64,000 bases of DNA from Chlamydiales bacterium (lineage in GTDB: Bacteria; Chlamydiota; Chlamydiia; Chlamydiales; JACKPQ01). The translations under genes were made by a program, and so were the position numbers. Below the pieces are notes generated by a model, which was not told the DNA's origin, ran no database searches, and worked only from the letters and a program-made list of their open reading frames with translations. The stretch is taken from assembly GCA_024233435.1 (NCBI GenBank), contig JACKPQ010000001.1:660582-724581 (forward strand), given 5' to 3'. Below, piece by piece: positions 1 to 48,494 of this stretch. Each line of letters begins with the position of its first letter. Position 1 is the stretch's first letter.

Positions 1-2
1 AG

Positions 3-15743: not shown

Positions 15744-17865
15744 ATGGAAAGACACTCACCTCGTTAAAAAGAGGAAAATCGAAGAGTTCACCGCAAGCCT
15801 TCAGCACTTTATTGCGCTCCAATTCTAATTCGGCATTGATACAAGAAAGAGAAGAAACCGTACGAGAAAGGCGCTGCAAATCAATGGGGCGCTCGCGCAC
15901 TGCTAACGCCGGGGCAAAAAGCATCCAGACCAGAAAATCCCTTTCATCCTCTTGCCAATCATAAGATCGACTCATTAGCTTTAAAAAGGCATAAAATCCT
16001 GCAGAGGCTGCCGCCCCCACATCCACAGCATCCTTACATGTAAAGCTTAAGCTATGAGGCTGGACTGATTCGATCATCTTTAGCGTCAGAAAATGATAGA
16101 AAATCTCGATGAAATCAAGTCGATTCTTACGAGAGAGCGCATTTTTGCCACCAAAAAAGGTTTTGTGAATCAATGGAACCGCTTTTGATGTAAAGCTCTC
16201 TGCCTGGATTTGATTAAAAGACTTGGGAAAGAAAAATCCACAAGACTCTCCTCCCTTGACTTGCTCGATGACTGAGTCTAAAAAATCTTCCGCCTGATTC
16301 AATTGCAAGTAGACATCTGATTGAAAGTAAAAATCTGTATATTTTGGCAACGTTGCAACAACCAAATTTGGTGAAAACTCAGCAGATTTTTGTATTTTTT
16401 CAAGGACTTCACAGCGAGCGTGCTCTTCCCAAGAAGTGCGATCTTGCAAGTTGATGATCAAATGCTGATCGCCACGCTTATGCGATGCAAGCTGGCGCAA
16501 AAAAGCCTGAAACTCTTGTGTTATCTCAGCCTTTTGAATGTAGCGCTGCCTTGTTGGTGATGGCAAACGCAGACAGTCAAGGTGGAAGTTACGAAATGAG
16601 ACAATGAAACACTTGCTTGCCAAATTACCTTGCGCGCCAGGATCAAACCCGTGAAAATCTTCATCAGGGTGAAAAACATCTAAAGCCTTAAATAGAGGAC
16701 CGCTTGGAAAATGCTTTAAAAGCCCATAAATCTCTTCATGAACATCGAGCAAGTGATTCCAAAGTGAGCTACTTTCTTTCTTTTGTGAAATCATCCCATA
16801 AATGAAAGAAATTGCCTCTTCTCGGTTACCAATACGCGTAAAAAAAGCATAAGAGAGCGCATGAGCTAGGTGAAGAATAGTTTGGCCTAGCTCATCATCG
16901 GGGTCGAGCTGAACTGAAATCATTCGAGCATAGTCAGTAGAGCTTAAAATCCGCCTCATGTACATTTGAAAATCGCTAAAATATCCCACACAGCTTTTGC
17001 TGCTTGTATTCTGCATCAAATGACGGGGATTAGAGGCAAGCATCAAAGCCATGCAAGCAGAATTCAAATCGCTTACCAATGGCAAATGGCGATTTTTCAT
17101 CGCAAGATGATAAAAAGCATTTAAATCGTAAGAGACATCTTGCCGGATTTGCTTAGCTGAAGCATGCATATCCTTATCATGGACCAAAATGATCTTCGTA
17201 AGTGGATCAAGAGCTTGCAACTCAACAAGAGCATCATCAAAATCCGTGACGAGCCGCAAGTGTCTGAGCAAGTCGCGATTAAAAAAAGCTGAACCATCTT
17301 CCCTGAGGATGTAGAAGAGCTCATAATCACGGTCTTTTTTGACCATCTCTAAACCCTTCAAGCCTCGACGTTTGATGTCAGCCAAATCACTTGGCCCGCT
17401 GCCCCACTCAGGCTGCCACGAAGGATCCTCGCCCTCACTTTGGATGTAGCTGACAATCCGCTTGAGATAATACTCCTGCAGATCGTGGTACTCCTTTAAT
17501 CCAGAGACACTAACGCCACCTAGCAATTCACGGCATTTATCCAGTTGTTTTGCCGCCTCCTTTACAAGGCCCATCATTGCCTGAATACCCCGTTGGGTTT
17601 GCCCCTCCTTCAGAGCCCCCCTTTCCTCAGTATAGTAGTAGTGCAAATACCTTTGGATGACTCCAAAAGTCTTCTTCACATTATCAATTGTCTTATCAGC
17701 ATCCTTTAAATCCAGCCAATAAATGTCCCTAAGAACCTCTTCTCCAGCCTCGATCATTTTAGCTCGAGCCTTCAGATCCTTCAGATCGAGTTCTGTAGCA
17801 TTGGAGAGCAGGTCAACTGCCTCCATAATTGTAAACTCTTCAATAGCGGTTTGTTTTTTAGCCAT
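15712..17865 (-). CDS. Large hypothetical protein (717 aa)
   Basis: Long uninterrupted ORF. Its 3' end overlaps the convergent autotransporter gene by 32 nt. No motif recognised. Confidence 0.6.
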   Translation of the reverse strand: MAKKQTAIEEFTIMEAVDLLSNATELDLKDLKARAKMIEAGEEVLRDIYWLDLKDADKTIDNVKKTFGVIQRYLHYYYTEERGALKEGQTQRGIQAMMGLVKEAAKQLDKCRELLGGVSVSGLKEYHDLQEYYLKRIVSYIQSEGEDPSWQPEWGSGPSDLADIKRRGLKGLEMVKKDRDYELFYILREDGSAFFNRDLLRHLRLVTDFDDALVELQALDPLTKIILVHDKDMHASAKQIRQDVSYDLNAFYHLAMKNRHLPLVSDLNSACMALMLASNPRHLMQNTSSKSCVGYFSDFQMYMRRILSSTDYARMISVQLDPDDELGQTILHLAHALSYAFFTRIGNREEAISFIYGMISQKKESSSLWNHLLDVHEEIYGLLKHFPSGPLFKALDVFHPDEDFHGFDPGAQGNLASKCFIVSFRNFHLDCLRLPSPTRQRYIQKAEITQEFQAFLRQLASHKRGDQHLIINLQDRTSWEEHARCEVLEKIQKSAEFSPNLVVATLPKYTDFYFQSDVYLQLNQAEDFLDSVIEQVKGGESCGFFFPKSFNQIQAESFTSKAVPLIHKTFFGGKNALSRKNRLDFIEIFYHFLTLKMIESVQPHSLSFTCKDAVDVGAAASAGFYAFLKLMSRSYDWQEDERDFLVWMLFAPALAVRERPIDLQRLSRTVSSLSCINAELELERNKVLKACGELFDFPLFNEVSVFPSKDSLRSEHK

Positions 17866-18121
17866 AATTAACCCTATAATTATTATTACATAAAACCAAT
17901 TAATTTATCAAATTTTTATTTTATTCTTATCTTGTTTATCGTCAACTACTTAAGAAATGCCGCGATAGGCGGAGCTTGAACCGTTGCAATGCAACATAGC
18001 TGCACCTCTAAGCATATCGAAATTAATAATTGTCGATACATAATTATATTTATTTAATTGACTATTAATTTAAAATAAATTACAATAGTCGTTAATTAAA
18101 TCAATTTATATAGTTTTATAT

Positions 18122-18835
18122 ATGTTAAAAATAAACGATGCTTCGCTTTTAAACACCGGATATGAATCTCAATATAATTTCGAACTTAAAACATATGAAT
18201 TTAAACAACCTGTAAATCCGGTAACCCGAATCTTCTCAGCAACGAAAGAAGCTGCGCCTCTTCTTTTTTACACTATTATATCAGACATTCTGAAAGAGAA
18301 ATCCAGACCATTCTATCAGCACAGATATAACCTGTTAATTAAATTAAACAACATTGAAAATGTTTCACGTGTTTTTGATAAATCATGTTTTATTATTAGA
18401 AATATTCAAGACATTCAATTTTCATATATAGAAAAATTAATGCCGAAGATCTGTCAGCTTGAAATATACACTTTTTTTTACGCTGCAGCTGAAGAAATTA
18501 CATTTAGACTTTTATTTCAGGAAATTATTTTAAGACGATTACCAAAAATAACTTTAAAAATTTTCGGAGTAAAAAAAGCAGATGAAATTGTAGACCACAC
18601 ATTTGTGAGAGTGATGCGCCTAACAGTATCAGCTGCTTTTTTTGCTTTAATGCATCGTAGTCAATTTCACCCAAACGGCTCCAACGGACTTCCTCAATTT
18701 ATCTTCGGTCTATTCTATGGAATGATATTAGAAAGGGCAAATAGCTCAACTCAAGTAATATTAAATATATTATATACAACTCTAGCTCATACGATGCATA
18801 ACTATATTCTGTATCTGCTCATACTTGGAATGTAG
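18122..18835 (+). CDS. CPBP-family intramembrane glutamic endopeptidase (CAAX protease/Abi-like)
   Basis: Motif 1 EExxxR (AAAEEITFRLLF), motif 2 FxxxH (FFALMH) and motif 3 HxxxN (AHTMHNY) sit on hydrophobic helices. The gene and its flanks are markedly AT-rich. Confidence 0.75.
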   Translation: MLKINDASLLNTGYESQYNFELKTYEFKQPVNPVTRIFSATKEAAPLLFYTIISDILKEKSRPFYQHRYNLLIKLNNIENVSRVFDKSCFIIRNIQDIQFSYIEKLMPKICQLEIYTFFYAAAEEITFRLLFQEIILRRLPKITLKIFGVKKADEIVDHTFVRVMRLTVSAAFFALMHRSQFHPNGSNGLPQFIFGLFYGMILERANSSTQVILNILYTTLAHTMHNYILYLLILGM

Positions 18836-18941
18836 CGCAACAAACCTTTCCTCGTGCGCCGTTCCGATGCTTTAATTCTCTTTTAGGCAAGGGACTTCAA
18901 AATCTCGGAATAGACCACCCGAAGCAATTTGACAAGTCGGG

Positions 18942-20342
18942 CTAATAAATACCAAATGCCCTACACATGCTTCCCAAAAAGCTTTGTGGATCCATAAACA
19001 TTAGAGGGCATCTTGAATCTTCCTTCATATCTTCGATCTTATTGGATAGCCCTTCCTCATTTCTAATACGCGTCAAACGACGTCTGATGGCTTTTCCATT
19101 AGACCCCCTGGAGAAGGTTAATATGCTCTGAACCGCATATTTCCCGTCGAAGTAGGCCGTGACCACACTTTCACAATTTTTGGACAGAACAACAGTCAAC
19201 CCGTTATCAGGGTTACGCAATGTCATAGAATCCCCTGCCTCATTTGCAGTAACTTGCCCAACGTAGAAAGTTTTGAGCAATTCCTCTTTAGAAATAAATC
19301 TTTCGCGCATCCGGAGTTTAGCGTGAGAAGACAAGAGTCTTCTCTCAATAAGGCATCTAGACAGCATTTTGACCTTATTGTTTGGTAGCTGCTTAAAGGT
19401 TTTGGGTTCAGTAGGGTTATAATTGGGGATTGACTTGCAAAACATAAGCATCAAGTCAGCTTTTTCCGCCCTAGCATTCAAGCGAGTTAAGACCCTAGCT
19501 CTCGATAATCCGCGATAATTTTTGCCGGGCTCTCTAGCTTCATTAACTTCTAAAACTCTCTTTCCACAAACCATCTTTCCAAGTTTGGATACGTACCGCG
19601 CAACATCCAATTCCCAGTCCTCAATGCCCAACCATTTTAACTTTGGAAGTTTGCTGATAGTTTCGACAAGTGTTTCATTTAGATACTCAGAACGAAATAC
19701 ATTTGAGCGCAGGTCAAGATAGCGTAAACTCTCTGCTTTTTCGATGCCATCGAAAAAGGCTTGTCCAATATCGTCATACCAGCTATGCGCACTAAAGCCA
19801 AATGCCTTCAGCTTATCTTTTTCCAAAAGTCCAGCGATTGCATATGCATGCTTCATTTTAAAAGAATCTAAATGCAATGAAACCGACTGAAGCTTAATCC
19901 GAGACAGTATATCAACAAGCTTTATGAAAACATCATCTTTTTCGATTTTGACCGCTATTCTAAGGTCCTTTAACCTAGACTGGCTTGTAAGCCCTTGTTT
20001 TAAGATCTCGATGCTACGCTTTGTTAGCGAACGAAAACTTAGGTCTAAGCATACCCAATCCCGCTTGCCCATAAGAAGCTTGAAAACAGCCAGGCCTTTG
20101 CCATTGAGAGTGTCAAAACCTATCCTTAGAGCGCTCAAGGGCTCAGATGCCACCAATTTAATGGTGAGCTGTTTTAGCGCCTTATTACTTAGCCTGTTTC
20201 CAGTGATATCAAGATATTCAACCTTATGCCGTTTAATACAACTGACAAGAAATTGTGTATCTCTTGAAGATAAATGCCCGTTTCTAAAATCTGCGCGCGT
20301 AAAATCGCTATTGTGAAGCGTGGTGATGCTTGATAAAGTCAT
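18942..20342 (-). CDS. RNI-type leucine-rich-repeat protein with a C-terminal DUF4258-like small toxin-type domain
   Basis: The N-terminal ~270 aa have ~28-aa LRR units (LDITGNRLSNKALKQL, LDLSFRSLTKRSIEIL, LDLRSNVFRSEYL). The C-terminus, HAKLRMRERFISKEELLKTFYVGQV...GLTVVLSKNCESVVTAY, parallels the DUF4258 pattern HA..RM.ERGIS.EE......G....l.VV.......viTaY (recalled from memory). Confidence 0.6.
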   Translation of the reverse strand: MTLSSITTLHNSDFTRADFRNGHLSSRDTQFLVSCIKRHKVEYLDITGNRLSNKALKQLTIKLVASEPLSALRIGFDTLNGKGLAVFKLLMGKRDWVCLDLSFRSLTKRSIEILKQGLTSQSRLKDLRIAVKIEKDDVFIKLVDILSRIKLQSVSLHLDSFKMKHAYAIAGLLEKDKLKAFGFSAHSWYDDIGQAFFDGIEKAESLRYLDLRSNVFRSEYLNETLVETISKLPKLKWLGIEDWELDVARYVSKLGKMVCGKRVLEVNEAREPGKNYRGLSRARVLTRLNARAEKADLMLMFCKSIPNYNPTEPKTFKQLPNNKVKMLSRCLIERRLLSSHAKLRMRERFISKEELLKTFYVGQVTANEAGDSMTLRNPDNGLTVVLSKNCESVVTAYFDGKYAVQSILTFSRGSNGKAIRRRLTRIRNEEGLSNKIEDMKEDSRCPLMFMDPQSFLGSMCRAFGIY

Positions 20343-20542
20343 TTTATTTGCTGGTTAACTTTTTGTCTGCGCTATCTTAAAAGACTGAATAAAATCAGTC
20401 AATACGCAATCCAATGCTTTTAGTGAGGAATCTAGATTTTGGTTATAGTTTGGTTGCGCGGGAATTCACGACATACCTTTTGGTAAGCGAAACTACCAAG
20501 AAGCCAAAACACACGAGGGCAACCGTGGCGTTCAGTGAGAAA

Positions 20543-22175: not shown

Positions 22176-23111
22176 ATGAAAAAATTTTCCCCATGCGTTA
22201 GACTAGGATTGATGAGAAAGTTATTTGTTGTTTTTTTGATAGTGGGGGGCTTTTTTGCTCTGGAGCGCTTATGTCATAAAGCAACAGATGGGTTTGCTCT
22301 CAATAGAATTGCTTATCCACTTGATGTGGAAGTTGTTGAAAGCAACAAACCCCTTTCGGTCGAGCACCAGTTTGCCCTGAATATTCTGCGTACTGAAAAA
22401 TTCTACTACTTAGGAAGTGGCGCGCAAGTCTATGCCTTTTGCACTAAGGATAACCAGTACGTCTTAAAGTTGTTTAAATTCCACCACATGCGCATTCCTC
22501 CGATTGTGAGTAAGCTCCCTTTGACTAAAGGGCTAGAGAAATTGCGCAAAGAAAAAATCGATTTTAAAACAAATATTATCAAAGACGTTTTTAATAGCTT
22601 TACAATCGCCTACAATCACTTGAAAGAAGAGACAGCTCTATTGCTTGTCCACCTAAATCGAACGAACCATCTAAATGGCAGCGTGCACATCGTCGACCGG
22701 ATCAACAATGAATATAATCTCGATCTCGATAACACCTATTTTGTCCTACAGCATTATGCCACGCTTGCCTATGATCAAATTGATACCTGGATGGAGCAGA
22801 AAGAAATCACCAAAGCCCGCAATGGCATACGCTCTTTAGTGAAATTGGCTGCCAAGCGCTGTCAAAAAGGTATCATGGATAAAGATCCTGATTTCAGCAC
22901 TAACTTTGGCTTTATCAACGGTAAAGCCAGGCAAATTGATATTGGTCGATTTGCCCACAATATTAACGAGTGTAAACCCGATATTTACGGGCCCGAGATG
23001 ATCCGAATCACGCGCCCTTTTAGAAATTGGCTCGAAGCGCATCACGAAGCCCTAGTTGAGGTATTAGATGAAGAAGTGGAAAGGATATCCGGGCCGCAGG
23101 CTGGCATTTAA
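22176..23111 (+). CDS. Membrane-anchored protein-kinase-like protein, paralogue 1
   Basis: An N-terminal TM is followed by ERLCHKATDGF. A Gly-rich loop-like YLGSGAQVYAF and YVLKLFK (beta3-Lys-like) are present, then DKDPDFSTNFGF (catalytic-loop-like D....N) and QIDIGRF (DFG-like). Confidence 0.55.
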   Translation: MKKFSPCVRLGLMRKLFVVFLIVGGFFALERLCHKATDGFALNRIAYPLDVEVVESNKPLSVEHQFALNILRTEKFYYLGSGAQVYAFCTKDNQYVLKLFKFHHMRIPPIVSKLPLTKGLEKLRKEKIDFKTNIIKDVFNSFTIAYNHLKEETALLLVHLNRTNHLNGSVHIVDRINNEYNLDLDNTYFVLQHYATLAYDQIDTWMEQKEITKARNGIRSLVKLAAKRCQKGIMDKDPDFSTNFGFINGKARQIDIGRFAHNINECKPDIYGPEMIRITRPFRNWLEAHHEALVEVLDEEVERISGPQAGI

Positions 23112-23937
23112 TGCTCTCATATTTTTCGCTTGTTTTACTCTTGTAGAACGCCTCTGTCATTTGGCTACAGATGGTTTTTCCGTGATGCGTATTTACCCTC
23201 CATTTCAAATAGACTCATTTTTTGATCCTCCTGCACCAAGTCAAGAGGTTTGCAAGCACCTTAATCAAAGCTACCGTTATCTAGGATCTGGGAGTCAAAG
23301 TTTTGCTTTTCTATCTGAAGATGGTCAATACGTCCTTAAATTTTTCAAGCTTAAAACCGGCTACTGGAGAGTTCCAAGCTTATCACGCCCAAAACGCAGG
23401 CGTGAATCTTTCACAGCGGCTTTTCAAAGTTGTTTGATCCACGCAGACACTTTTAAAGATGAATCAGGCGTTGTATATTGTCACTTAAAAGCCTCTAATC
23501 ACAATCTGCCTACAGTCACACTAATTGACCGCAATCGAAGGCTTTTGTCATTAGACCTATCCACCCTTCCTTTTGTTCTTCAAAAGTACGCCGAACCTGT
23601 AGATCAACGATTGCTACGGTTTAAAAAGGCAAATGATCGCAAATCAGCTGAGCAAACAATTGATCAACTTTTCAACGTTCTTCTAAAGCGCTATCACTTG
23701 GGCCTTTCAGACCGTGATCCCAATTTGATCACTAACTTTGGATTCATCGATAATCAAGCCGTTTCAATTGATGTGGGAGGTCTTGTCAATAACAGGCAAG
23801 ACCTCAAAACTTACTTTTGTGAGCACGAAATCCTCAAGGCTAAACATAAATGCAACCGCTGGCTATATAAGCACAACCCAGATCTTGTTGATCACGTAGA
23901 GAAAATTGTTGAAGACATAATTTCTTCAGAGCGTTAG
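23068..23937 (+). CDS. Membrane-anchored protein-kinase-like protein, paralogue 2
   Basis: Same architecture as paralogue 1: TM + ERLCHLATDGF, YLGSGSQSFAF, YVLKFFK, DRDPNLITNFGF, SIDVGG. The annotated start overlaps paralogue 1 by 44 nt. Confidence 0.55.
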   Translation: MKKWKGYPGRRLAFNALIFFACFTLVERLCHLATDGFSVMRIYPPFQIDSFFDPPAPSQEVCKHLNQSYRYLGSGSQSFAFLSEDGQYVLKFFKLKTGYWRVPSLSRPKRRRESFTAAFQSCLIHADTFKDESGVVYCHLKASNHNLPTVTLIDRNRRLLSLDLSTLPFVLQKYAEPVDQRLLRFKKANDRKSAEQTIDQLFNVLLKRYHLGLSDRDPNLITNFGFIDNQAVSIDVGGLVNNRQDLKTYFCEHEILKAKHKCNRWLYKHNPDLVDHVEKIVEDIISSER

Positions 23938-23970
23938 AATGTGAAAGATTAACAACTTTACGGAGCTACT

Positions 23971-25569
23971 ATGAAAAAGATGTGCGTTTTCACTCTATCA
24001 CTGGTCTGTTTGATGCTGAGCGGATGCTCAGAAAAAGAGACCTGCGGCAAAGCGGATCAGAAAATCCTAAAGATTTGTTATGATCACAATCCAACAACGC
24101 CTGATCCTCGCCGCGGTGGGGATATGGTCACAAATGTTTCCTCCTTTATGCTTTTTGAAGGACTGACTGCCACTACTAAAGAAGGTGAGCTTGAGCCATC
24201 TCTTGCGCAAAGCTACGAAATCTCAGAAGATAAAACCGAGTACACCTTTCATCTACGTCCATCTAAATGGTCTGATGGCGTGCCTTTAACCGCTCATGAT
24301 TTCGAATATAGTTGGAAAACGCTTCTCTCACCTGATTTCCCCTCGCCTTGCGCTTTTTTGCTTTACCCAATCAATAACGCCCGCCAAGCTAAGGAGGGAA
24401 ACGTTTCCACTGATGAAATTGGCGTAAAAGCTCTTGACGATCATACTTTGCTAGTCAAATTGGAAAAACCCTGCCCTTACTTCCTTAAGCTTGTCTCTTT
24501 CTATACTTTTTATCCTATCCCTAAACACATAGACATAGCCAACCCTGATTGGGCTTTCCACCCATCTAGCGATACGGTTTCAAATGGCCCTTTCAAAATC
24601 AAATCATGGCAATTTGGCATTGAAATTGATTGTGCGAGAAATGAGAATTACTGGAATGATAAGGCAGTCCACTTAGATGGAATCAATATCAGCATCATTT
24701 CTGATCCTAATACGTCCCTACAAATGTTTGAGCAAGGTAAATTTGACTGGATCGGAGATCCTGTCTCTCCAATCCCTGTTGATGCTCTTGCCAATAGCAA
24801 CTGCGTTTTTTCAAACTCTATTGCAGCTTGTACGTTTGTCCCCTTCAATGTCGACAGATTTCCCTTTAATAACGCTAATATCCGCAAAGCTTTCTCCTAC
24901 GCTATGAACAGGGAAGCAATCACTCAACACATCACACAAATGGATGAAGAACCAGCAACGCGTTTTGTTCCATCTGTTTTTGCTGGCTACGATCAAGAAG
25001 AGCTCATACCAGCTCAAGGCGATAAGCAAAAAGCTTTAGAGTTTTTTGCTCTTGGTTGCCAGGAGTTAGGGATAAATGCCAAAGATTTCCCTACTTTGAC
25101 GCTGATTTCTCCTGTGGCTGGGCATTACAACAAACTTGCACAGGCCCTACAACAACAGCTAAGGGATGTCCTCAATGTAAATATTCAGATCAGCGATAAA
25201 GATCTTAAGCTTGTACTTGATGATCTTGTGAAGCGCAATTACGACTTTGGTCTTGTTATGCTTGTTGCCCAATATCAAGATCCAATGAATATTTTTGAGC
25301 GCTTTATGTTTAAACAAACACCTAAAAACTACTCGGGATTTGAAAATTCCAATTATATCTCTCTTATTGACGCCTCGTTTTACGCAAAATCAGATGGTGA
25401 GCGAAACCAGATCTTTAGTGAAGCAGAAAAGCTTTTAGCTAACGAAATGCCCTACGCACCCCTTTATTTTTATAACTCTCATTCATTAATGAAGCCAAAT
25501 GTAAAAGGGTTATTCATGACACCTGTAAGCACTCTACACTTCCGGGATGTTGATTTCATAGAAGAATAA
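23971..25569 (+). CDS. oppA: Peptide ABC transporter substrate-binding lipoprotein (family 5 SBP, OppA-like), copy 1
   Basis: Lipobox LMLSGC. Family-5 SBP segments DPRRGGD, LFEGLT and WSDGVPLTAHDFEYSW. Confidence 0.85.
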   Translation: MKKMCVFTLSLVCLMLSGCSEKETCGKADQKILKICYDHNPTTPDPRRGGDMVTNVSSFMLFEGLTATTKEGELEPSLAQSYEISEDKTEYTFHLRPSKWSDGVPLTAHDFEYSWKTLLSPDFPSPCAFLLYPINNARQAKEGNVSTDEIGVKALDDHTLLVKLEKPCPYFLKLVSFYTFYPIPKHIDIANPDWAFHPSSDTVSNGPFKIKSWQFGIEIDCARNENYWNDKAVHLDGINISIISDPNTSLQMFEQGKFDWIGDPVSPIPVDALANSNCVFSNSIAACTFVPFNVDRFPFNNANIRKAFSYAMNREAITQHITQMDEEPATRFVPSVFAGYDQEELIPAQGDKQKALEFFALGCQELGINAKDFPTLTLISPVAGHYNKLAQALQQQLRDVLNVNIQISDKDLKLVLDDLVKRNYDFGLVMLVAQYQDPMNIFERFMFKQTPKNYSGFENSNYISLIDASFYAKSDGERNQIFSEAEKLLANEMPYAPLYFYNSHSLMKPNVKGLFMTPVSTLHFRDVDFIEE

Positions 25570-25583
25570 CATTGGAGGTATCC

Positions 25584-27185
25584 TTGAGTGGATATAGAAA
25601 ACAAGCGGCCACTTTCATTGTTGGACTTCTTCTCATCTTGTCAGGGTGCAAAGGGAAAAAAGCCTGTGAGCACCCGCAAGTTCTTAGGTTAAACATGTCT
25701 GCTACACCCTCGACGTTTGACCCACGCCGCAGTGGTGATCTTGTATCAACCTGTCTTCATTTTTTTCTTTTTGAAGGTCTGACGCGTTTGACAGATGTCG
25801 GACCTGGGGAACCCGGAGTTGCAGAAAAGGTAGAGGTGTCCAAAGACGGTCTGACATATCTCTTTTCTCTGCGTCAATCGCTCTGGTCAGATGGCATGCC
25901 GGTGACAGCAAGCGATTTTGAATTTGCTTGGAAATCTATTCTTAATCCAGAGTTTCCCTGTCCTAACGCTCATCTGCTTTATTCAATTAAAAATGCCCAG
26001 CTAGCAAAGCAGGGCCTTGTAGATATTGATGAAGTGGGAATCGAGGTGATCGACCCTCAAACTCTTAAGGTTACATTAGAAACTCCAGCTCCCTATTTTT
26101 TAGAAATCGTTTCTTTTGCAACGCTGCATCCTGTTCCTAAGCACATTGCCCAAAATCAACAGAACTGGTCTGATCAAAATCCACTTGTTGTCAATGGTGC
26201 TTTTAAATTGGACAACTACGTCCGTAGACAGGAAATGGAATTGGTCACAAACGAAAAGTACTGGGATCACAAGCATATTCATCTAGAAAAAATTAAGGTT
26301 AGCTTCATTGAAGATGAGATGACCGCTTTGCAAATGTATGAGAGGGGTGAGCTCGACATTCTAGGGGGATACTACACGCGAATTCCTGAAACTGCAATTA
26401 GTTCATTGAAGAAATCGGGAGATTTGCGCACGTATCCAGTACCTGGCTCTACACATCTTGCGTTTAACTTAAAGCAATGGCCCTTCGATCAAGCATGCTT
26501 TCGAAAAGCTCTTTCAGCTGCTATCGATCGGCAAGAAATTGTTACCGGCATTACTCAACTCAACGAAAGCCCTGCCTACGACCTCATCCCTCCATCACTT
26601 AAAGATGAAATCATGATGCCCTATCATTTAACCCAAGATCCTAAGTCATTATTTGATGAAGCTTTAGATCAAATGAACATCACAAAAGATGAGCTACCCA
26701 CGATTACCCTTTCCTACTCAAAGGCTGCACTCTCCCATAACGTTGCACAGGCCATCCAGCAACAATGGACAGAAACGCTTGGAATCAATGTTCAGCTATC
26801 ATCAACCGAGCACAAACTCCACTTAAACCGTTTAATGAAGCATCAATTCCAGGTGGCCATTTTTAATATTTGGGCTCAGTATAGCGACCCCCTCAGTATC
26901 CTTGAACGCTTTGCTTATGCAGACAACCCTAAAAACTATATGAGTTGGAACAATCCCGATTATAACCTCTGTTTATCTCAACAGCCTAATTTACAGAAAC
27001 GGCGCAGTTTTTTAGCCCAAGCTGAGCGTATTTTACTCAATGAATCACCTATAGCTCCGATTTTTCACTGGCAACACGCAATTTTACAAAAGCCCTATTT
27101 GAAAAATGTTCATATTTCTAGAAGCGGTGGCATTTACTTACATGAGGCTTCAATTGACCTAGACGAAAAAGGTCAATATCGATAG
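25584..27185 (+). CDS. oppA: Peptide ABC transporter substrate-binding lipoprotein (OppA-like), copy 2
   Basis: Paralogue of copy 1 (DPRRSGD, LFEGLT, WSDGMPVTASDFEFAW; lipobox ILSGC). TTG 25584 lies 5 nt after GGAGG; the track start TTG 25572 overlaps that RBS. Confidence 0.85.
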   Translation: MSGYRKQAATFIVGLLLILSGCKGKKACEHPQVLRLNMSATPSTFDPRRSGDLVSTCLHFFLFEGLTRLTDVGPGEPGVAEKVEVSKDGLTYLFSLRQSLWSDGMPVTASDFEFAWKSILNPEFPCPNAHLLYSIKNAQLAKQGLVDIDEVGIEVIDPQTLKVTLETPAPYFLEIVSFATLHPVPKHIAQNQQNWSDQNPLVVNGAFKLDNYVRRQEMELVTNEKYWDHKHIHLEKIKVSFIEDEMTALQMYERGELDILGGYYTRIPETAISSLKKSGDLRTYPVPGSTHLAFNLKQWPFDQACFRKALSAAIDRQEIVTGITQLNESPAYDLIPPSLKDEIMMPYHLTQDPKSLFDEALDQMNITKDELPTITLSYSKAALSHNVAQAIQQQWTETLGINVQLSSTEHKLHLNRLMKHQFQVAIFNIWAQYSDPLSILERFAYADNPKNYMSWNNPDYNLCLSQQPNLQKRRSFLAQAERILLNESPIAPIFHWQHAILQKPYLKNVHISRSGGIYLHEASIDLDEKGQYR

Positions 27186-27196
27186 TCTTAAGCTTT

Positions 27197-29275
27197 ATGG
27201 ACCATCTAGACATCGAGTGCGCTCATCCTTACCCTGCTGGCTATGAGGATATTTTCCCAGAATTTATTGCATATATTAAAAAAGTGATATGCCGCTCCCT
27301 GCCTGATGATTTTATGCATTGCGGGCCAGAAGGTGTCTCTAAGGCCATTGACCAACTAAAAGATAACTTACCAATTGTTGAGTTTTCAAACCCAACATCT
27401 GTACCTTGCACAATCCAACTTAACGTTATCACTTTTAGCAAGGACACCCACGGAGCTGGACGCTTTTTGTGCGACCTTATCAATCGCTGGCTTATCCCAG
27501 GGAAACAGATCCAGATTGGGATTTCCCACTCTCTGATATTTTATTTTAAACAAGCTCCTACCAAAGAGTTTTTTATCCACATCTTAGGTGGTTACATTCA
27601 AGACAATGCTGAGCTTCAAATTGTTAAACGTCAATTTCCAAAGTTAAGAAGTGAAATTCAAACGATTCTCCGCTCGGTTGTTCATGCACGTAAGGTCATT
27701 GCATCTAACGTTATTGGCATTGAACATAAACGCACTTTTATTGAAGAAAATCTGCTCTCATTGCTTGATAGGCCGAAAAAAGATTTGGATCAAACAATGC
27801 ATGACCTCATGCATCAGTTTTTCATTCGTGCATCGTCTGAATACAATATTGAAAAAATCAAAGAAAACTTTGCTCGACTAGTCCACAAGGCCCCCCATCA
27901 AGTTGATCGAGATATCTTTAACGAAATTCAGCACTATGTTCTGCTATTTCGCGATCTTTTTATGGCCGCCAGGACTCGTCACCACCTTTATAGAATCATT
28001 AGTTATAAATACCTCTTTCGTAAATCGATTGCATATGCTGTTCGGGAAAATCCCAATCGTCGCTATATGCCCATAAAGTTTTTACCAGCAGTTCTAGAGG
28101 AAAACCAACGCGTGCTGGGGCTTATTGTCGGGTACAATTCACTGAGTGAAAATGAAGTTTTTGAAGCGCGTCATATTTTAGCTGCTGTACGCACCTATTT
28201 GAGCGATGCGCAAATCGTCCCTAACTCCTACATTGTTGATAATCGCAAAGATGCTCAAGTCCGCACCTGCTATCTGGAAATTACAAATAAAAATCAAATC
28301 CCCCTTACACCAAAAGAGCTTGCCTTACTTCGAAACAAATTACCAAAAGAGCTTCCCTCACGCATTGAATCAATCAGCCACCACCTTTTTGTCCACCGAA
28401 ACGAAGAAGAGGTCATGAGAAATATTCTTATCCTTAGTAAACAGCTTAAATTTGTGCGGGATATCCCTCAGGTTATTATCAACTTTGATAAGCAGACAGA
28501 ATCTACTCTTTGTTTCACTGTTATTTTGCTGCGCTTGATTAAGCCTGATTCTATTCCGCTGCGACAACTGCTAAATAAGGATGAGAATAAGTTTACATTC
28601 TTTGACTATGATGTAAAAATCGTTGGAAATTTACGAAAAAAATACCCTAAAGAAGCTAATGTTTTTGAAATGCGTGTCGATAAACACCTCTATTTGAGAG
28701 GCGATAATTCAATCGATCTCTATCGAGCCCGTCAAGCTGTTATGGGGCAATTGGTTGACCTGGTTGGAGAAGTGCGCGATTACAATGGAGGCATGATTTC
28801 AAAACAAACTGAGGCACTTGAAGAACTACGCTCTCTTTTAAAACCAGAAGCTATTAGCAACGATTTCCTATTAGAAAACTTTTTCTACTCCACAGTTCCA
28901 ACCTACATGCAAAGCGTAATCCCTGTAGACCAGTATCGGACTCTTTTTCTATTTCTTAACACAATCGCTGAAAACCCTTCAAGAGAGCAACCCTATCAAA
29001 TGCAGTATTCCATTAAAGAGGAATTTTGCATCATTGCCATTGGGGCTGTGGATAGCACCTTTAAAGAAAATATTGCCCTAGCCATTGATCAGCTCAACAT
29101 ACGCGCCCCTGAGATTTGCGTGACCTCAGTTAGGATCTACGATCTTTTTTGCGTCGGCTATCTTTATCGGTATGAAAATAAGAAAAGAGCTGAAGAGCTT
29201 ATCAGCGCTGTTAAGCAATCTTTAGCACAATGGGAAACAACCCTTAAAAAATCTGTGGACCTTGTAGCGAGATGA
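27197..29275 (+). CDS. Large hypothetical protein (692 aa)
   Basis: Uninterrupted ORF 11 nt after oppA copy 2. Its stop overlaps the start of the next gene (ATGA). No motif recognised. Confidence 0.6.
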   Translation: MDHLDIECAHPYPAGYEDIFPEFIAYIKKVICRSLPDDFMHCGPEGVSKAIDQLKDNLPIVEFSNPTSVPCTIQLNVITFSKDTHGAGRFLCDLINRWLIPGKQIQIGISHSLIFYFKQAPTKEFFIHILGGYIQDNAELQIVKRQFPKLRSEIQTILRSVVHARKVIASNVIGIEHKRTFIEENLLSLLDRPKKDLDQTMHDLMHQFFIRASSEYNIEKIKENFARLVHKAPHQVDRDIFNEIQHYVLLFRDLFMAARTRHHLYRIISYKYLFRKSIAYAVRENPNRRYMPIKFLPAVLEENQRVLGLIVGYNSLSENEVFEARHILAAVRTYLSDAQIVPNSYIVDNRKDAQVRTCYLEITNKNQIPLTPKELALLRNKLPKELPSRIESISHHLFVHRNEEEVMRNILILSKQLKFVRDIPQVIINFDKQTESTLCFTVILLRLIKPDSIPLRQLLNKDENKFTFFDYDVKIVGNLRKKYPKEANVFEMRVDKHLYLRGDNSIDLYRARQAVMGQLVDLVGEVRDYNGGMISKQTEALEELRSLLKPEAISNDFLLENFFYSTVPTYMQSVIPVDQYRTLFLFLNTIAENPSREQPYQMQYSIKEEFCIIAIGAVDSTFKENIALAIDQLNIRAPEICVTSVRIYDLFCVGYLYRYENKKRAEELISAVKQSLAQWETTLKKSVDLVAR

Positions 29276-30141
29276 AACGCCTCATCCTCATTCCAATTTT
29301 GACTATCCTATTTCTAGCTTACAATACGCACTTCAAAAGAACTAAGGGCTTTTGCGTTGAAAAAGTCAAAGCCTATTCACGCCCGGCTGATTCAAAATAT
29401 GACATGCCACAATCTGACTTTGATGCACAATCTGCTTTAAATCAAACCTTCTACTACTTGTCTAGCGGTGCGAGCATGTATGTCTTTGTCTCAGAGGATC
29501 AGCGCTATGTTTTAAAGCTATTTAAACAACGTCATATGCGGCCGTTTTCTGTTTATGAAAAGTTGATCGGTTATCCACTGATTCCAAGCAAGCAAAGATC
29601 TCTTAATAACCGACTCCAATTTAGAAAAAAAGCCTTTGATAGCTGCTTGATTGCCTATTCAAAATTTCGCGACCAAACTGGTGTGCTCTACATGCATCTT
29701 AACCCCACCTCTCATCTTAATGTCCGTTTGCGCCTTGTTGATCATAAAGGATCCCATCTTTTGCTAAATGCTGACAAGGAAGAATATTATATCCAACGTA
29801 AAGGCGAGGGTATCATCGATTGCATTTGCAAATGGCACAGTGAGGGTGAGCGTGAGACCATCCGCAATGCACTTAAATCTCTTGTGGAGCTTATCATCGC
29901 AAGGTGTGAAAGGGAAATTGGAGATTTTGACAACTGCTCTAAAAACTTTGCCTTTATCGATGGTAAAGCCATAGAAATTGACATCGGTGAATTTTGGAAT
30001 GATCCCGGTGTAAAAGAGCGTGTGCATATCAACGCTCACATCATTACAGCAACGTTTGACTTGAGAAATTACCTTGCAAAGCATTACCCTGAGTTACGCG
30101 ATGATTTAGATGAGATCTTAAGAGAGTATGGCGCAGTATAA
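29272..30141 (+). CDS. Membrane-anchored protein-kinase-like protein, paralogue 3
   Basis: N-terminal TM, YLSSGASMYVF, YVLKLFKQRHMR, DFDNCSKNFAF, EIDIGEF. These are the same motif set as 22176..23111 and 23068..23937. Confidence 0.55.
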   Translation: MKRLILIPILTILFLAYNTHFKRTKGFCVEKVKAYSRPADSKYDMPQSDFDAQSALNQTFYYLSSGASMYVFVSEDQRYVLKLFKQRHMRPFSVYEKLIGYPLIPSKQRSLNNRLQFRKKAFDSCLIAYSKFRDQTGVLYMHLNPTSHLNVRLRLVDHKGSHLLLNADKEEYYIQRKGEGIIDCICKWHSEGERETIRNALKSLVELIIARCEREIGDFDNCSKNFAFIDGKAIEIDIGEFWNDPGVKERVHINAHIITATFDLRNYLAKHYPELRDDLDEILREYGAV

Positions 30142-30577
30142 AACACATGCAAAATTCAACCTATTTATCGCCCTGCCCAGCTTTAGCTTAATTGTCTATT
30201 TCTACTTTACACAAGATGTGCGCCTGCTCAGCATTTTTATTGCTGCATTTGCCTACTCAACCCTTTTCATGAACCCTGATCTTGACCTAGCGCACCAAAT
30301 AAAATTCTTAAGCATTCGCGGAGTTCTAACATCTCCATTTCGCCTCTATTCGAAGATTTTTTCTCACAGAGGATTTTCCCACTCCATCGTCTTTGGCACG
30401 CTCTCGCGTCTTCTATTTTTAGCTGTGCTCGCTCTGCTTTGCATGTGGATCTATACGCAGGCAAACCCTTCTTTAAACGGTGTTTGGAGCTTTATTCTCA
30501 ATCACCAAACACCGCTTCTCTATGCTTTTTCTGGGATATTTTTAGCAGATCTTTCACACTTGGCACTTGATATATGA
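30128..30577 (+). CDS. DUF2227-like putative metal-binding membrane protein
   Basis: STLFMNPDLDL and FSHRGFSHSIVFGTLSRLLFL parallel, from memory, the DUF2227 pattern (GPDLD ... HRS.LSHG...GT..RL.YL). There are 3-4 hydrophobic helices. The gene overlaps both neighbours. Confidence 0.5.
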   Translation: MAQYKTHAKFNLFIALPSFSLIVYFYFTQDVRLLSIFIAAFAYSTLFMNPDLDLAHQIKFLSIRGVLTSPFRLYSKIFSHRGFSHSIVFGTLSRLLFLAVLALLCMWIYTQANPSLNGVWSFILNHQTPLLYAFSGIFLADLSHLALDI

Positions 30578-31458
30578 TGCCTCTTAAGATTGAAAACCTA
30601 TCTAAAAAATATGGCTCATTCTGCGCTGTTAATAATGTCTCTTTTGACTTAAAGCCAGGGGAAGTTTTTGGGCTGCTTGGACCAAATGGTGCTGGGAAAA
30701 CCACCATTATCTCTTGCATCATATCGCTTGTTAAACCTTCCAAAGGATCCATTTCCGTATTTGGAAAATCCAACCCTCAAATTACCAAGCAACAGATTGG
30801 ATTTGTTCCGCAAGAACTCATTAGCCATGGCTATTTTACAGTTGAGGAAGTGATGCACATTCACGCCTCTTACTTTGGCCTTTGGCGATGCTCTGCCCAT
30901 ATTGAATATCTTCTGAAAAAACTTGATTTATGGACCCATCGACACAAACATGTCAAACAACTCTCGGGGGGCATGAAAAGGCGTTTGCTGATCGCTAAAG
31001 CCCTTGTTCATAAGCCAAAACTCCTTTTACTCGATGAGCCTACCGCAGGTGTTGACGTTGAGCTGCGCGCTCAGTTATGGGAATTTGTCCGCGATATGCA
31101 AAAGGAAGGAATGACGATTCTATTGACAACACATTATTTAGAAGAGGCTGAAAAGCTATGCGATCGGGTCGGCATTCTGCACCATGGCCACTTGCGCACA
31201 GTTGGGCATACTCAAGGGCTAATCAAAGAGCTCACTCATCGTGAGATCGTTTTAACCCTCTCAAAAAGCGTGGGCAAAATTCATCATCCTGCCCTTCGCT
31301 TGCAAGACGACCATACCCTTATTTTTCTTGTTCCCAGCTCTTATCAGCTCTGCACATTGCTCTTAGAGCTCAACCTGTCTATTGATTCCATCCAAGACCT
31401 ACATATCCGTGAGGGCAACTTAGAAGATGCTTTTCAGCGCGTTCTGGGGGAAACATGA
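30574..31458 (+). CDS. ABC transporter ATP-binding protein (ABC-2/DrrA-type exporter)
   Basis: Walker A GPNGAGKTT, signature LSGGMKRR, Walker B LLLLDEPTAGVD, H-loop TTHYLEEAE. Confidence 0.88.
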   Translation: MMPLKIENLSKKYGSFCAVNNVSFDLKPGEVFGLLGPNGAGKTTIISCIISLVKPSKGSISVFGKSNPQITKQQIGFVPQELISHGYFTVEEVMHIHASYFGLWRCSAHIEYLLKKLDLWTHRHKHVKQLSGGMKRRLLIAKALVHKPKLLLLDEPTAGVDVELRAQLWEFVRDMQKEGMTILLTTHYLEEAEKLCDRVGILHHGHLRTVGHTQGLIKELTHREIVLTLSKSVGKIHHPALRLQDDHTLIFLVPSSYQLCTLLLELNLSIDSIQDLHIREGNLEDAFQRVLGET

Positions 31459-32234
31459 GTAGATCACCATTTTGGGGCGTATTACTGCGAGAGATCAAAC
31501 GCTATCTCAAAGTGCCCTACCAGACACTTGGAACACCCCTGATCAATTCATTGCTCTATCTCTTTATTTTTGGACTGAGCTTAGGGCAGAGCATCACCTT
31601 GCCCGGCTACCCATCCTACCTATTTTTCCTGATCCCTGGACTCATCATGATGACAACTATAAAAAACGCCTTTGATAACGCCTCCAGCTCTGTGGTTTCA
31701 TCAAAATATTCTGGTGAGCTCATCGACTTGCGCATCACCCCTTTAACCCCCACTCATATCGCATCAGGGTTTTGTCTTGCTGGCCTCTCCCGCGGACTAA
31801 TCGTTGCCATAATCACTTATATCACAAGCGCTCTACTCGTCTACTTCACCCAACCCACAAATCTACCTATCACACACCCCTGGATCCTTTTATACTTCAT
31901 TCTAGTTAGCGGGTGCGGTTTTGCCTCAATGGGGCTTACCATTGGCATGCTTTCGAAAAACTTTGACACACTCAATGCCTTTAGTTCTTTTTTGCTTGTC
32001 CCCCTGATTTATCTAGGAGGTGTTTTCTTCTCGCTCAATTCCCTGCACCCTTTTTGGCAACTTATCAGCCGGTTTAACCCCCTGCTCTATATGATCAGTG
32101 GTGTTCGCTATGGGTTCTTAGGGAAATCTGATGTGAGCGTTTCCCTTGCAATGCTTATCAGCTTTCTATTCCTCTGTTTTTTTTATGCGTGTGCCCTTCT
32201 AACTTTGCGAAAAGGTAAAAATTATCATTGGTAA
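31455..32234 (+). CDS. ABC-2 type transporter permease
   Basis: Six hydrophobic segments and an ATGA overlap with the ATPase gene. The size is typical of ABC-2 permeases. Confidence 0.8.
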   Translation: MSRSPFWGVLLREIKRYLKVPYQTLGTPLINSLLYLFIFGLSLGQSITLPGYPSYLFFLIPGLIMMTTIKNAFDNASSSVVSSKYSGELIDLRITPLTPTHIASGFCLAGLSRGLIVAIITYITSALLVYFTQPTNLPITHPWILLYFILVSGCGFASMGLTIGMLSKNFDTLNAFSSFLLVPLIYLGGVFFSLNSLHPFWQLISRFNPLLYMISGVRYGFLGKSDVSVSLAMLISFLFLCFFYACALLTLRKGKNYHW

Positions 32235-47249: not shown

Positions 47250-48494
47250 TTATAAAGCATCAAGATAGGACTCTCCTTCCCTATTTAACACATAGCTCAA
47301 GCTGAAATCATAGCTAAGCATCCAATCTACTGACTTTTGATAACCACCACGTACAGCCATGTGAATTGGATAATCCTGTTCAAAATTACCTTGACAGTAG
47401 AGGAGCGTGGGGTCTTTTTCAACGAACAGCTTTATCAGTTCGAGGTGACCCGACTGGGCTGCCTCATGAATGGGAAGCTCACCGTGGCTATTAGGAAGAT
47501 CTAGAAGTTTTGGCGCCTTTTCAAGAATCCACCTGGCCATACGCAGATCCCCATTATATGCAGCAAAGTGTAAACAAGTCTCTCCATGATCAACTTGAAC
47601 TTCCAGCAAGATAGGATCTTTCTCCCACATCCATTTCAGGGCATCAAAATCTCCCTGTTTAGCCGCGCAATGGATAGGCAACCATCCATCTTCATCCTCA
47701 TTGGACAGATAAAGCCTTGAAACACCTCCCTGACGGATAATCTCCCAATCTTTATCCCAATTCTTACCATACAATAATGGTGGTGAGTACTCTATGATGG
47801 AATGGTCCATAGAGGTTTCAAGCTTTGCGCAGAGATCAGAAATTGAGCTAACCTCATGATGCCGCTCCAGATCTGGGTCTAATAACCAACACATCTTGTA
47901 GATCATCGAGATCGCTAAAAGAAGTTCAAACCTTGTAAAAACTAAGGAACGAGTCTGATTAGCCGAATGATTACTCCACAGGCTTACTGCAGCAGAAGAA
48001 AACAAATCGGCCTTTGTTGGATCCTGAAAGAAAGCGATGGCTTTTTTTAGCCAGGTCATGAACATGCCAAGCTCATCTTCGTTCATTAGCTGATTGAGAT
48101 CAAACTCACGGCTACCAAAAGCGCAATGAGTGATAAACTCAGTAAACCGGCCAAAGCAGCCATTAATATTTTTAGAGTCTTGCTCATCAGCAGAGTAAAC
48201 AAATACCTTTCCTGCAGCATTATAAAGATAAATATCCTCTTGGTGTTTGCAAAGAACGATGCCCTTAAGGTTACCTAGGCTTGGTTCAATGTAAATTCTA
48301 TAGCCCCCAAGCTCAAGACTCCCTGTATCAGACACAAAAGCTTTCAAGCTTTCAGACATGGGGCATTGCAATTGCTTTTCTAGAGCAGATGTGTTTTGAG
48401 TGCATTTCGAGTCGTCGATCAGGTAGGGAACACCCGCCCTTTTCATCAGAACTTCAAAATTTGGACGATACCAAGAATTCAACACCGTTTTCAT
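47250..48494 (-). CDS. SUKH (SMI1/KNR4)-like N-terminal domain fused to C-terminal ankyrin repeats
   Basis: The C-terminus has 4-5 ANK units (GWLPIHCAAKQGDFDALKWM, GETCLHFAAYNGDLRMARWIL, GELPIHEAAQSGHLELIKLF, YPIHMAVRGGYQKSVDWML). The N-terminal segment ALEKQLQCPMSESLKAFVSDTGSLELGGYRIY resembles the SMI1/KNR4 motif region, but the match is weak. Confidence 0.65.
   Translation of the reverse strand: MKTVLNSWYRPNFEVLMKRAGVPYLIDDSKCTQNTSALEKQLQCPMSESLKAFVSDTGSLELGGYRIYIEPSLGNLKGIVLCKHQEDIYLYNAAGKVFVYSADEQDSKNINGCFGRFTEFITHCAFGSREFDLNQLMNEDELGMFMTWLKKAIAFFQDPTKADLFSSAAVSLWSNHSANQTRSLVFTRFELLLAISMIYKMCWLLDPDLERHHEVSSISDLCAKLETSMDHSIIEYSPPLLYGKNWDKDWEIIRQGGVSRLYLSNEDEDGWLPIHCAAKQGDFDALKWMWEKDPILLEVQVDHGETCLHFAAYNGDLRMARWILEKAPKLLDLPNSHGELPIHEAAQSGHLELIKLFVEKDPTLLYCQGNFEQDYPIHMAVRGGYQKSVDWMLSYDFSLSYVLNREGESYLDAL

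Follow-up and report, generated by a model that had tools for sequence, protein, structure and literature searches.

We analysed a 64-kb stretch of contig JACKPQ010000001.1 from a Chlamydiales bacterium (the whole 64,000 nucleotides (nt) are called the window here) and focused on three open reading frames (ORFs) on its forward strand, which we named K1 (22176..23111), K2 (23068..23937) and K3 (29272..30141). K1 comprises 311 amino acids (aa) from the first ATG and encodes a protein of protein-kinase-like (PKL) fold with an N-terminal hydrophobic helix; gene callers and relatives prefer a start at Met13 (nt 22212), which yields 299 aa. K2, a 289-aa paralogue of the other two, begins within the 3' end of K1, the two sharing 44 nt, as they do in the related locus L067. 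K3, likewise of 289 aa and the most divergent of the three, overlaps the stop of an upstream 692-aa ORF by 4 nt (ATGA). Pairwise BLASTP aligned the proteins over nearly their full length, with 35% identity for K1/K3 (E 4e-43), 31% for K1/K2 (E 1e-41) and 29% for K2/K3 (E 4e-35). The three are intact paralogues with similarity far above chance, as an earlier reading of the window, made from the sequence and its translations without database searches (the sequence-only reading), had recognised. A six-frame scan of the window with a family hidden Markov model (HMM) recovered three copies, exactly K1, K2 and K3, and no fragments of the family. In a promoter and terminator scan, counts were no different from the shuffled expectation.

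Putative active-site motifs, predicted fold and conservation

The catalytic domains of the three proteins share four motifs, all encoded on the forward strand. The Gly-rich loop YLGSGAQVYAF of K1 (aa 78-88; 22407..22439), at the turn between strands beta1 and beta2, corresponds to aa 71-81 of K2 (23278-23310) and aa 62-72 of K3 (29455-29487). It is followed by the beta3 strand YVLKLFK, which carries the VAIK-type Lys98 (K1 aa 95-101, 22458..22478; K2 aa 88-94, 23329-23349; K3 aa 79-85, 29506-29526), and by the catalytic-loop equivalent DKDPDFSTNFGFI, with D235, D237 and N243 (K1 aa 235-247, 22878..22916; K2 aa 215-227, 23710-23748; K3 aa 218-229, 29923-29958). The last motif is QIDIG, whose Asp255 is by position the DFG-type metal-binding Asp (K1 aa 253-257, 22932..22946; K2 aa 233-237, 23764-23778; K3 aa 235-239, 29974-29988). 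All motifs quoted in the sequence-only reading are present in K1-K3, with ERLCHxATDGF found in K1 and K2 only; the distance from the Lys to the Asp, given there as about 150 residues, measures about 137.

Models were predicted with AlphaFold2 (AF2) from an alignment of 96 sequences for K1 and of 117 for K3. The predicted local distance difference test (pLDDT) score and the predicted template modelling (pTM) score reached 94.2 and 0.89 for K1, and 94.8 and 0.90 for K3. The elements follow one another in the same order in the two models. An N-terminal helix leads into three strands and a long helix; more strands and a pair of helices come next, then a short strand, a loop and another two short strands, and two long helices form the C-terminus. 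Both models display the bilobal PKL layout, with an N-lobe of a beta-sheet and one helix and a helical C-lobe. The latter is minimal in both, having about 55 residues (two helices) after the DFG-like Asp and no activation segment. In the K1 model, two additional strands lie between beta4 and the hinge region.

The residues of the Gly loop, the Lys, the Asp…Asn pair and the DxG motif are predicted to occupy kinase-typical secondary-structure elements. In the AF2 model of K1, G82 forms the turn between strands 75-81 and 85-90, K98 lies within strand 95-100, the D235/D237/N243 loop comes after helix 211-230 and strand 233-235, and D255-x-G257 stands directly after strand 250-253. These are the positions expected under the assignment of a Gly loop, Lys, Asp…Asn and DFG-like motif originally made from the sequence.

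We compared the models with known and predicted structures using Foldseek, taking the top 50 matches in PDB for K1 and K3 and in BFVD, a set of viral predicted structures, for K1. All PDB matches were kinases, and those in BFVD were essentially kinases alone, including APH-like and ChoK-like phage proteins; over PDB and BFVD together, E went down to 2.6e-5, with a probability of about 1.0. The best PDB matches of K1 were, in order, AceK (6k5l, E 3.9e-5), PRPK/Bud32, the ABC1-like proteins MSMEG_1954/Rv3197, RIO2 and WbdD, followed by ordinary kinases; those of K3 were RIO1 (9.7e-5), RIOK3, AceK, RIO2 and PRPK, and also WbdD and COQ8A. The template modelling score (TM-score) for PRPK was 0.52-0.54 when normalised to PRPK; on the query, K3 versus PRPK gave 0.45, the highest of the matches. 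Overall, the two models and their matches agree with the kinase-like fold first proposed from the motifs, and make it very probable that the K family is a distant branch of the PKL fold.

Residue conservation was counted over 466 distinct family members, in K1 numbering. K98 is kept in all 466, G82 in 465 and F88 in 464, while Q192 and N243 are conserved in about 100%. The remaining positions follow closely: D255 (99%), D237, D92 and F189 (98% each), G257 (97%), D174 (96%) and D235 (90%). The Lys, Asp, Asn and Asp picked out in the sequence-only reading are thus invariant or nearly so among homologues (98-100%), and the catalytic set is retained in every paralogue class. An analysis of specificity-determining positions flagged residues 239, 258, 274 and 278, which adjoin the active-site loops; it was underpowered, as only four K3-type sequences were available.

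Selection was estimated by comparing the window with L067 (GCA_020440445.1, labelled 'Chlamydiia bacterium'), in which gene order is identical. The ratios of nonsynonymous to synonymous substitution (dN/dS), which are rough values at a dS of about 0.8-1.1, were 0.066 for K1, 0.084 for K2 and 0.112 for K3, close to the 0.03-0.07 of neighbouring genes (0.032 for the 692-aa protein, hereafter H692). By this measure the K genes are constrained and functional, neither decaying copies nor fast-evolving effectors. Since purifying selection is combined with 98-100% conservation at all catalytic positions, the K proteins are most likely active enzymes. The same values bear on whether they could be secreted as effector kinases with host proteins as their targets. 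Chlamydiae secrete many effectors, multigene families are typical of effectors, and the window is rich in effector-like genes (leucine-rich repeat (LRR) and ankyrin proteins). Such a role is nevertheless very unlikely, given that dN/dS of 0.07-0.11 resembles that of housekeeping neighbours, that synteny and paralogue order are conserved across Chlamydiota families, and that a hydrophobic helix at the N-terminus does not constitute a type III secretion signal and a cleavage site is missing in most members.

Relation to named kinase families

Searches of Pfam, NCBIfam, PADLOC and PHROGs gave no usable match to the K proteins; the matches obtained were at chance level, for example FTA2 on the Gly loop (E 0.08) and Shigella_OspC in 3 of 96 members. 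Even when the Pfam threshold was relaxed to E<=5, none of the 96 members matched Pkinase, Kdo or WaaY; RIO1, AceK, APH and secretory-kinase models likewise had no Pfam match. When PDB sequences were searched with profiles of 3 and 96 sequences, nothing came up except a 35-residue match to KduI, which was spurious, and a de novo designed protein. The statement that the three proteins fit no named family thus held in all of these searches. No published description of the K family was found in full-text searches of the literature or in recent surveys of bacterial PKL families, and we rate it as a new, unnamed family within the known PKL superfamily.

To compare the family directly with individual kinases, we used hhalign with the true E. 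coli WaaP and WaaY single sequences and with an AceK kinase-domain profile built from 50 sequences. The alignment of the K family with AceK spanned 154 collinear columns with all motifs in register (score 25.7, P value 0.011); as controls, 20 column-shuffled profiles scored at most 20.1 and the reversed profile 12.9. The Gly loops were aligned, K98 was paired with the Lys of AceK 'VFKVIKD', D237…N243 with 'GD457MLFKN462FGV', and D255 with D475. With WaaY, the catalytic and metal loops alone were aligned ('GDPHRGNFII…RIIDLSG', P 0.09), and WaaP gave no alignment; these single-sequence alignments are too weak for ranking families. Judged from the aligned sequences, the K catalytic loop reads like those of the bacterial atypical kinases AceK and WaaY, and the K family belongs to none of them. 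The sequence-only reading had held that the loop differs from those of the bacterial Hanks, LPS/Kdo and APH kinases, a view not supported by the pairing of D237…N243 with 'GDMLFKNFGV' of AceK and 'GDPHRGNFII' of WaaY.

AceK (isocitrate dehydrogenase kinase/phosphatase; PF06315) shares with the K proteins the motif grammar G-x-G…F…V-F/L-K-x-I/F-K and D-x4-5-N-F-G-V/F, with a metal-binding Asp about 12 residues further on. It differs in having an N-terminal regulatory domain of about 300 aa (PF20423), whereas K proteins have about 35 residues between the TDGF motif and beta1, and in possessing a substrate-recognition loop, which K proteins lack. The Asp-Asn spacing is +5 in AceK and +6 in most K members, and identity is 12-15%. 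Unlike AceK, moreover, the K proteins are chlamydial, carry a membrane anchor and measure about 285 aa. Membership in the AceK family was rejected on the lack of a Pfam match, an hhalign probability of 3.8% and the missing regulatory domain.

The lipopolysaccharide (LPS) kinases WaaY, WaaP and Kdo kinase, together with WbdD, resemble the K proteins in being bacterial PKL enzymes, theirs acting on a membrane-bound glycolipid; the WaaY loops align, and WbdD is a top structural match. The K proteins could accordingly be viewed as divergent WaaP/WaaY/KdkA kinases that phosphorylate chlamydial LPS or some other glycolipid on the cytoplasmic side of the membrane. This would fit the similar loop grammar (GDPHRGNFII…RIIDLSG in WaaY, DxDPxxxxNFGFI…IDxG in the K family) and the small core of a membrane-proximal enzyme. 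We nonetheless consider it improbable, and membership in the Kdo and WaaY families was rejected: Pfam Kdo and WaaY models matched none of the 96 members at E<=5, WaaP remained unaligned, and the neighbourhoods of 63 loci contained no LPS or glycosyltransferase genes. Arrays of 2-8 tandem copies are not a feature of LPS kinases, and the copy number of the K genes is far beyond the need of a Kdo-only LPS.

RIO1, RIO2, RIOK3 and Bud32/PRPK include the best structural matches of K3 and, like the K proteins, have a minimal C-lobe without an activation segment. The K proteins differ in lacking the winged helix and the KEOPS context and in carrying the anchor and two extra strands, and their genes are not universal housekeeping genes. 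Membership was rejected because the likeness is structural only, no RIO1 Pfam match was found, and the gene context consists of transporters and hypothetical proteins. The UbiB/COQ8/ABC1 proteins (COQ8A, Rv3197, MSMEG_1954) are membrane-associated PKL ATPases that appear in both Foldseek lists, with no sequence match to the K family. UbiB proteins are larger, with a KxGQ N-terminal extension and C-terminal anchors.

These neighbours raise the question of whether the K proteins mainly hydrolyse ATP, perhaps via a phospho-Asp, and act as a switch or chaperone that powers a conformational change or the handling of lipids at the membrane. The top fold neighbours (RIO1, RIO2, RIOK3, PRPK/Bud32, AceK, COQ8A and the mycobacterial ABC1-like proteins) point in this direction, as do the short C-lobe, with its approximately 55 residues past the DFG-like Asp, and a membrane anchorage reminiscent of the UbiB family. 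However, chemistry is not dictated by fold neighbours; the proteins that align also include two genuine sugar kinases, WbdD and WaaY, and the 5-8 diverged copies per locus suit substrate diversification better than one housekeeping switch. We regard this alternative as unlikely.

The sequence-only reading likened the topology of the proteins (signal anchor plus kinase-like domain) more to the secretory-pathway kinases of eukaryotes than to the bacterial Hanks, LPS/Kdo or APH kinases. Fam20/Fjx1, DIPK/FAM69, POMK, VLK and CotH do share the general plan of a PKL domain preceded by a hydrophobic segment at the N-terminus, and nothing beyond it. No Fam20, DIPK, POMK or CotH structure was among the PDB top 50 of K1 or K3, the nearest being RIO, Bud32/PRPK, AceK, WbdD and UbiB/COQ8, and the proposed likeness was therefore not upheld. 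Membership among the secretory kinases or CotH was rejected on these grounds, together with the lack of a Pfam match and of a conserved disulfide pattern. Two further candidates were discarded. Hanks-type Ser/Thr/Tyr kinases were rejected on the lack of a Pkinase match in the 96 members at E<=5 and on the mere 55 or so residues past the DFG-like Asp. APH/choline kinases (PF01636) had neither a Pfam match nor any APH or choline-kinase structure in the PDB top 50 of K1 or K3, their likeness being limited to the APH-like and ChoK-like phage proteins in the BFVD top 50.

Membrane anchor, topology and predicted activity

The hydrophobic anchor is encoded on the forward strand at 22221..22262 in K1 (LFVVFLIVGGFFAL, aa 16-29), 23113-23145 in K2 (aa 16-26) and 29281-29322 in K3 (aa 4-17). 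Its length is 14 residues in K1, the same in K3, and 11 in K2; in the AF2 model of K1 it forms part of one unbroken helix (aa 6-37). A hydrophobic N-terminal helix was therefore correctly read in all three proteins; its designation as a transmembrane helix is less secure, as the stretch is short, mostly 11-15 uncharged residues across the family. The anchor is followed by the juxtamembrane motif ERLCHKATDGF in K1 (aa 30-40; 22263..22295) and by its equivalent in K2 (aa 27-37; 23146-23178). In K3, which lacks ERLCH and retains T-x-G-F, only KRTKGF is found (aa 22-27; 29335-29352), again on the forward strand. The usual N-terminus of the family reads M-K/R-x…, 11-15 hydrophobic residues, then E-R-L/F-C-H-x-A/Q-T-D-G-F. 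Over the 466 members, F40 is conserved in 97%, G39 in 88%, T37 in 86% and C33 in 70%, and the juxtamembrane region of the K1 model has a pLDDT of about 97. Given that T37, G39 and F40 are conserved and modelled with high confidence, the catalytic domain must lie at the surface of the membrane.

The side of the membrane on which the domain lies was assessed from flanking charges, cysteines and fusion proteins. Family-wide, the count of Lys plus Arg is 2.5 upstream of the hydrophobic stretch and 2.4 in the 15 aa downstream, whereas net charge is higher on the N-flank in 167 of 232 members and on the C-flank in 25. Read from sequence in this way, the charge counts appear ambiguous. An Arg shortly after the hydrophobic stretch disfavours Sec translocation. 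In a disulfide test, C33 and C229 co-occurred weakly (odds ratio 1.9), and 145 of 328 C33-bearing proteins lacked C229; with no conserved Cys pair in the family, an obligatory periplasmic disulfide was not supported.

Several members are fusion proteins. The four K-K two-domain fusions (P0096, P0097, P0256 and P0257) have a hydrophobic N-terminus on the first domain only, and thus both domains should lie on the same side of the membrane, a hint that neighbouring copies act together. In P0097, a canonical AXA-type signal (...PIYAHA|VSS) replaces the anchor and the TDGF motif. At L066 (6001-8220; Logan SRR32022410; P0225), the K gene in position 2 is fused in frame with a C-terminal domain of flavin adenine dinucleotide (FAD) amine oxidases (Amino_oxidase/NAD_binding_8), giving a 739-aa protein; this single case may be a clue to the compartment or the substrate class. 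As indicators of topology, P0097 and P0225 point in opposite directions and are conflicting.

A signal-anchor topology with the domain outside is possible. The enzymes themselves would be unchanged and only their orientation specified: an uncleaved Sec signal would place the PKL domain in the periplasm, where it would draw on ATP passing through the outer membrane toward the translocase. ATP is generally cytoplasmic, a rule that is weaker for chlamydiae as ATP importers. Host ATP enters them via inner-membrane ATP/ADP translocases, according to references cited in PMC8242063, and the family is seen only in the phylum of these importers. A periplasmic placement would also agree with the Sec-like grammar of n-region and h-region (2-3 Lys or Arg, then 11-15 hydrophobic residues), with the higher N-flank net charge of most members, with the AXA-type signal of P0097, and with the envelope proteins among the operon partners, namely the OppA lipoproteins and, in Rhabdochlamydiaceae-type loci, the signal-peptide protein upstream. 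Arguing against it are the equal Lys and Arg counts on the two flanks, the Arg 1-2 residues past the hydrophobic stretch, and the stretch itself, which is not long enough to cross the membrane stably. The FAD amine-oxidase domain of P0225 is expected to fold in the cytoplasm, a conserved cysteine pair is lacking, and Fam20, DIPK, POMK and CotH are missing from the structural top 50. We consider a periplasm-facing domain rather doubtful. It is slightly more doubtful still that the family represents extracytoplasmic ATP-dependent kinases of the chlamydial inner membrane, a first bacterial counterpart of the secretory-pathway kinases, with 3-8 paralogues acting on envelope proteins or lipids. If this were true, periplasmic kinases would be possible only since host ATP crosses the periplasm of these energy parasites.

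On balance, we lean toward the K proteins being active Mg-ATP phosphotransferases, or possibly ATPases, that are tethered to the inner membrane and act on a membrane-embedded or membrane-proximal substrate, the paralogues being ancient and of different specificities. Nucleotide-dependent catalysis as such we hold to be likely. In the mechanism we propose, the phosphates of Mg-ATP would be held by the Gly-rich loop at G82 and by Lys98, and the metal ions by Asn243 and Asp255, while Asp237 would serve as the catalytic base. The gamma-phosphate would be moved to a substrate at or in the inner membrane, a location suggested by the start of the catalytic domain directly after the anchor, or ATP would be hydrolysed upon substrate binding. 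It is most likely that the paralogues have different substrates or sites, and they may form hetero-oligomers, since neighbouring copies are sometimes fused.

Several observations weigh against this proposal. The sequence ties to known kinase families are marginal (hhalign probability 3.8% for AceK, no match in Pfam or among PDB sequences), and the TM-scores on the query are modest (0.3-0.45). The gene context of transporters, OppA and hypothetical proteins suggests no substrate. RIO, Bud32, AceK and COQ8 act largely as ATPases, so 'kinase' may misname the family. In addition, no conserved alphaC Glu partner for Lys98 was identified in the alignment of family members: helix 118-148 has no conserved acidic residue, and E152, although 83% conserved, is a Gln in K3. 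This last point, together with the atypical +6 spacing between the catalytic-loop Asp and Asn, could be taken to mean that the K proteins are catalytically dead pseudokinases serving as membrane scaffolds. With the ATP- and Mg-binding positions 98-100% conserved in 466 sequences and in all paralogue types, we find that reading highly implausible.

Family distribution, array organisation and neighbouring genes

When 1.84 billion representative proteins were searched with a profile, 2,582 clusters passed E<=1e-3 and 1,917 still passed E<=1e-30, with a sharp boundary; what the window alone had suggested to be a family of three members is thus far larger. A single-sequence search yielded 95 homologues, all annotated as 'hypothetical' and with no precomputed Pfam domain, from sources that include Simkania negevensis, Neptunochlamydia, Simkaniaceae and Chlamydiia; UniProt labels the S. 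negevensis member 'uncharacterized protein'. Scanning GTDB species representatives, we found 63 K loci, mostly labelled Chlamydiota (Simkaniaceae, Rhabdochlamydiaceae, Parachlamydiales). Thirteen loci with K arrays bear the labels Verrucomicrobia, Verrucomicrobiae or Acidobacteriota (L020, L024, L026, L028, L030, L032, L035, L037, L038, L045, L054, L058 and L055). Most of these share the chlamydial synteny with the H717 gene described below, and the labels are probably wrong or the bins contaminated. The K family has apparently been seen so far almost only in chlamydiae, its named sources in the collections searched being Simkaniaceae, Rhabdochlamydiaceae and other Chlamydiota metagenome-assembled genomes.

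The family is set apart by its architecture of anchor, TDGF motif and minimal PKL core, by its apparent restriction to one phylum and by its tandem amplification. It comprises at least 2,500 clusters, has an obligate-intracellular phylum in every named source, forms conserved arrays and keeps its ATP and Mg residues intact, yet it has neither a name nor a Pfam model. Unnamed families of this kind have repeatedly yielded odd PKL chemistry, as in the AMPylation by SelO, the glutamylation by SidJ and the secretory kinases of Fam20 and CotH type.

In 61 of the 63 loci, the K genes form head-to-tail arrays with 2-8 copies inside 17 kb; the other two loci hold a single copy. In Simkaniaceae-type loci, the order is H717(-) … MFS(-) (major facilitator superfamily), K, K, OppA (1-2 copies), H692, K, K and DUF2227; other chlamydial loci have 5-8 contiguous K copies after a same-strand signal-peptide protein of about 274 aa. 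In the Simkaniaceae-type loci examined, paralogue type tracks array position across genera, the first copy being K1-like, the second K2-like and the last K3-like, from which it follows that the duplications are old. A fourth K type sits between H692 and K3 (L001 13134-13979, L002 15157-16005) in several relatives with Simkaniaceae-type loci, among them the two that are closest after L067. This type has been lost from the window, at junction 29272, and from L067, with no fragment left.

Two further genes accompany the arrays. The signal-peptide protein of about 274 aa is encoded beside the array in 49 of the 63 loci (e.g., L020 7037-7879, L004 5610-6434) and lies on the same strand directly upstream of it in Rhabdochlamydiaceae-type loci; Pfam gave it only a weak DUF6130 match. 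It is absent from the window, where its place (17866-20542) is taken by the genes of a CAAX-protease-like protein (18122-18835) and of an LRR/DUF4258 protein (18942-20342, reverse strand). H717, a soluble hypothetical protein of 717 aa with no database match, is encoded in the window at 15712-17865 (reverse strand). It is a strongly conserved synteny partner: in 40 of 63 loci, it precedes the K array by 2-4 kb.

From 22176 to 32234, all genes of the window lie on the forward strand, with ends that overlap or nearly abut, so that the stretch from the start of K1 onward forms an apparent 10-kb co-directional cluster. Downstream of K1 and K2 lie the genes of two solute-binding lipoproteins of OppA type, at 23971-25569 (Pfam SBP_bac_5, E 4e-73) and at 25572-27185 (E 9e-73 with the same model); this insertion between K2 and K3 occurs in Simkaniaceae-type loci only. 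The gene for H692 (27197..29275), a conserved hypothetical protein with no match in Pfam, NCBIfam, PDB, PADLOC or PHROGs, is translationally coupled to K3. Its homologues occur in 14 of 63 loci, inside or just downstream of the K array and never upstream, and between OppA and the distal K genes where both are present; H692 may be functionally coupled to the K family. The cluster continues after K3 with a DUF2227/YdjM-like membrane protein (30128-30577), an ATPase (30574-31458) and an ABC-2 permease (31455-32234) of ATP-binding cassette (ABC) type, all joined by start/stop overlaps.

At the upstream border of the array, L067, the closest relative, carries a fragment of an IS605 OrfB helix-turn-helix region (1-226, reverse strand) immediately before K1, where the window has the MFS gene, indicating a local rearrangement. 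Elsewhere, the window encodes an 828-aa IAT_beta inverse autotransporter (13257-15743, forward strand), a GspD-type secretin (37888-39423, forward strand), a fused glutamate-cysteine ligase/ATP-grasp protein (GshAB-like; 44026-46071, forward strand) and two ankyrin-repeat proteins (47250-48494 and 52036-53949, both reverse strand). Its host-interaction and envelope genes are typical of environmental chlamydiae.

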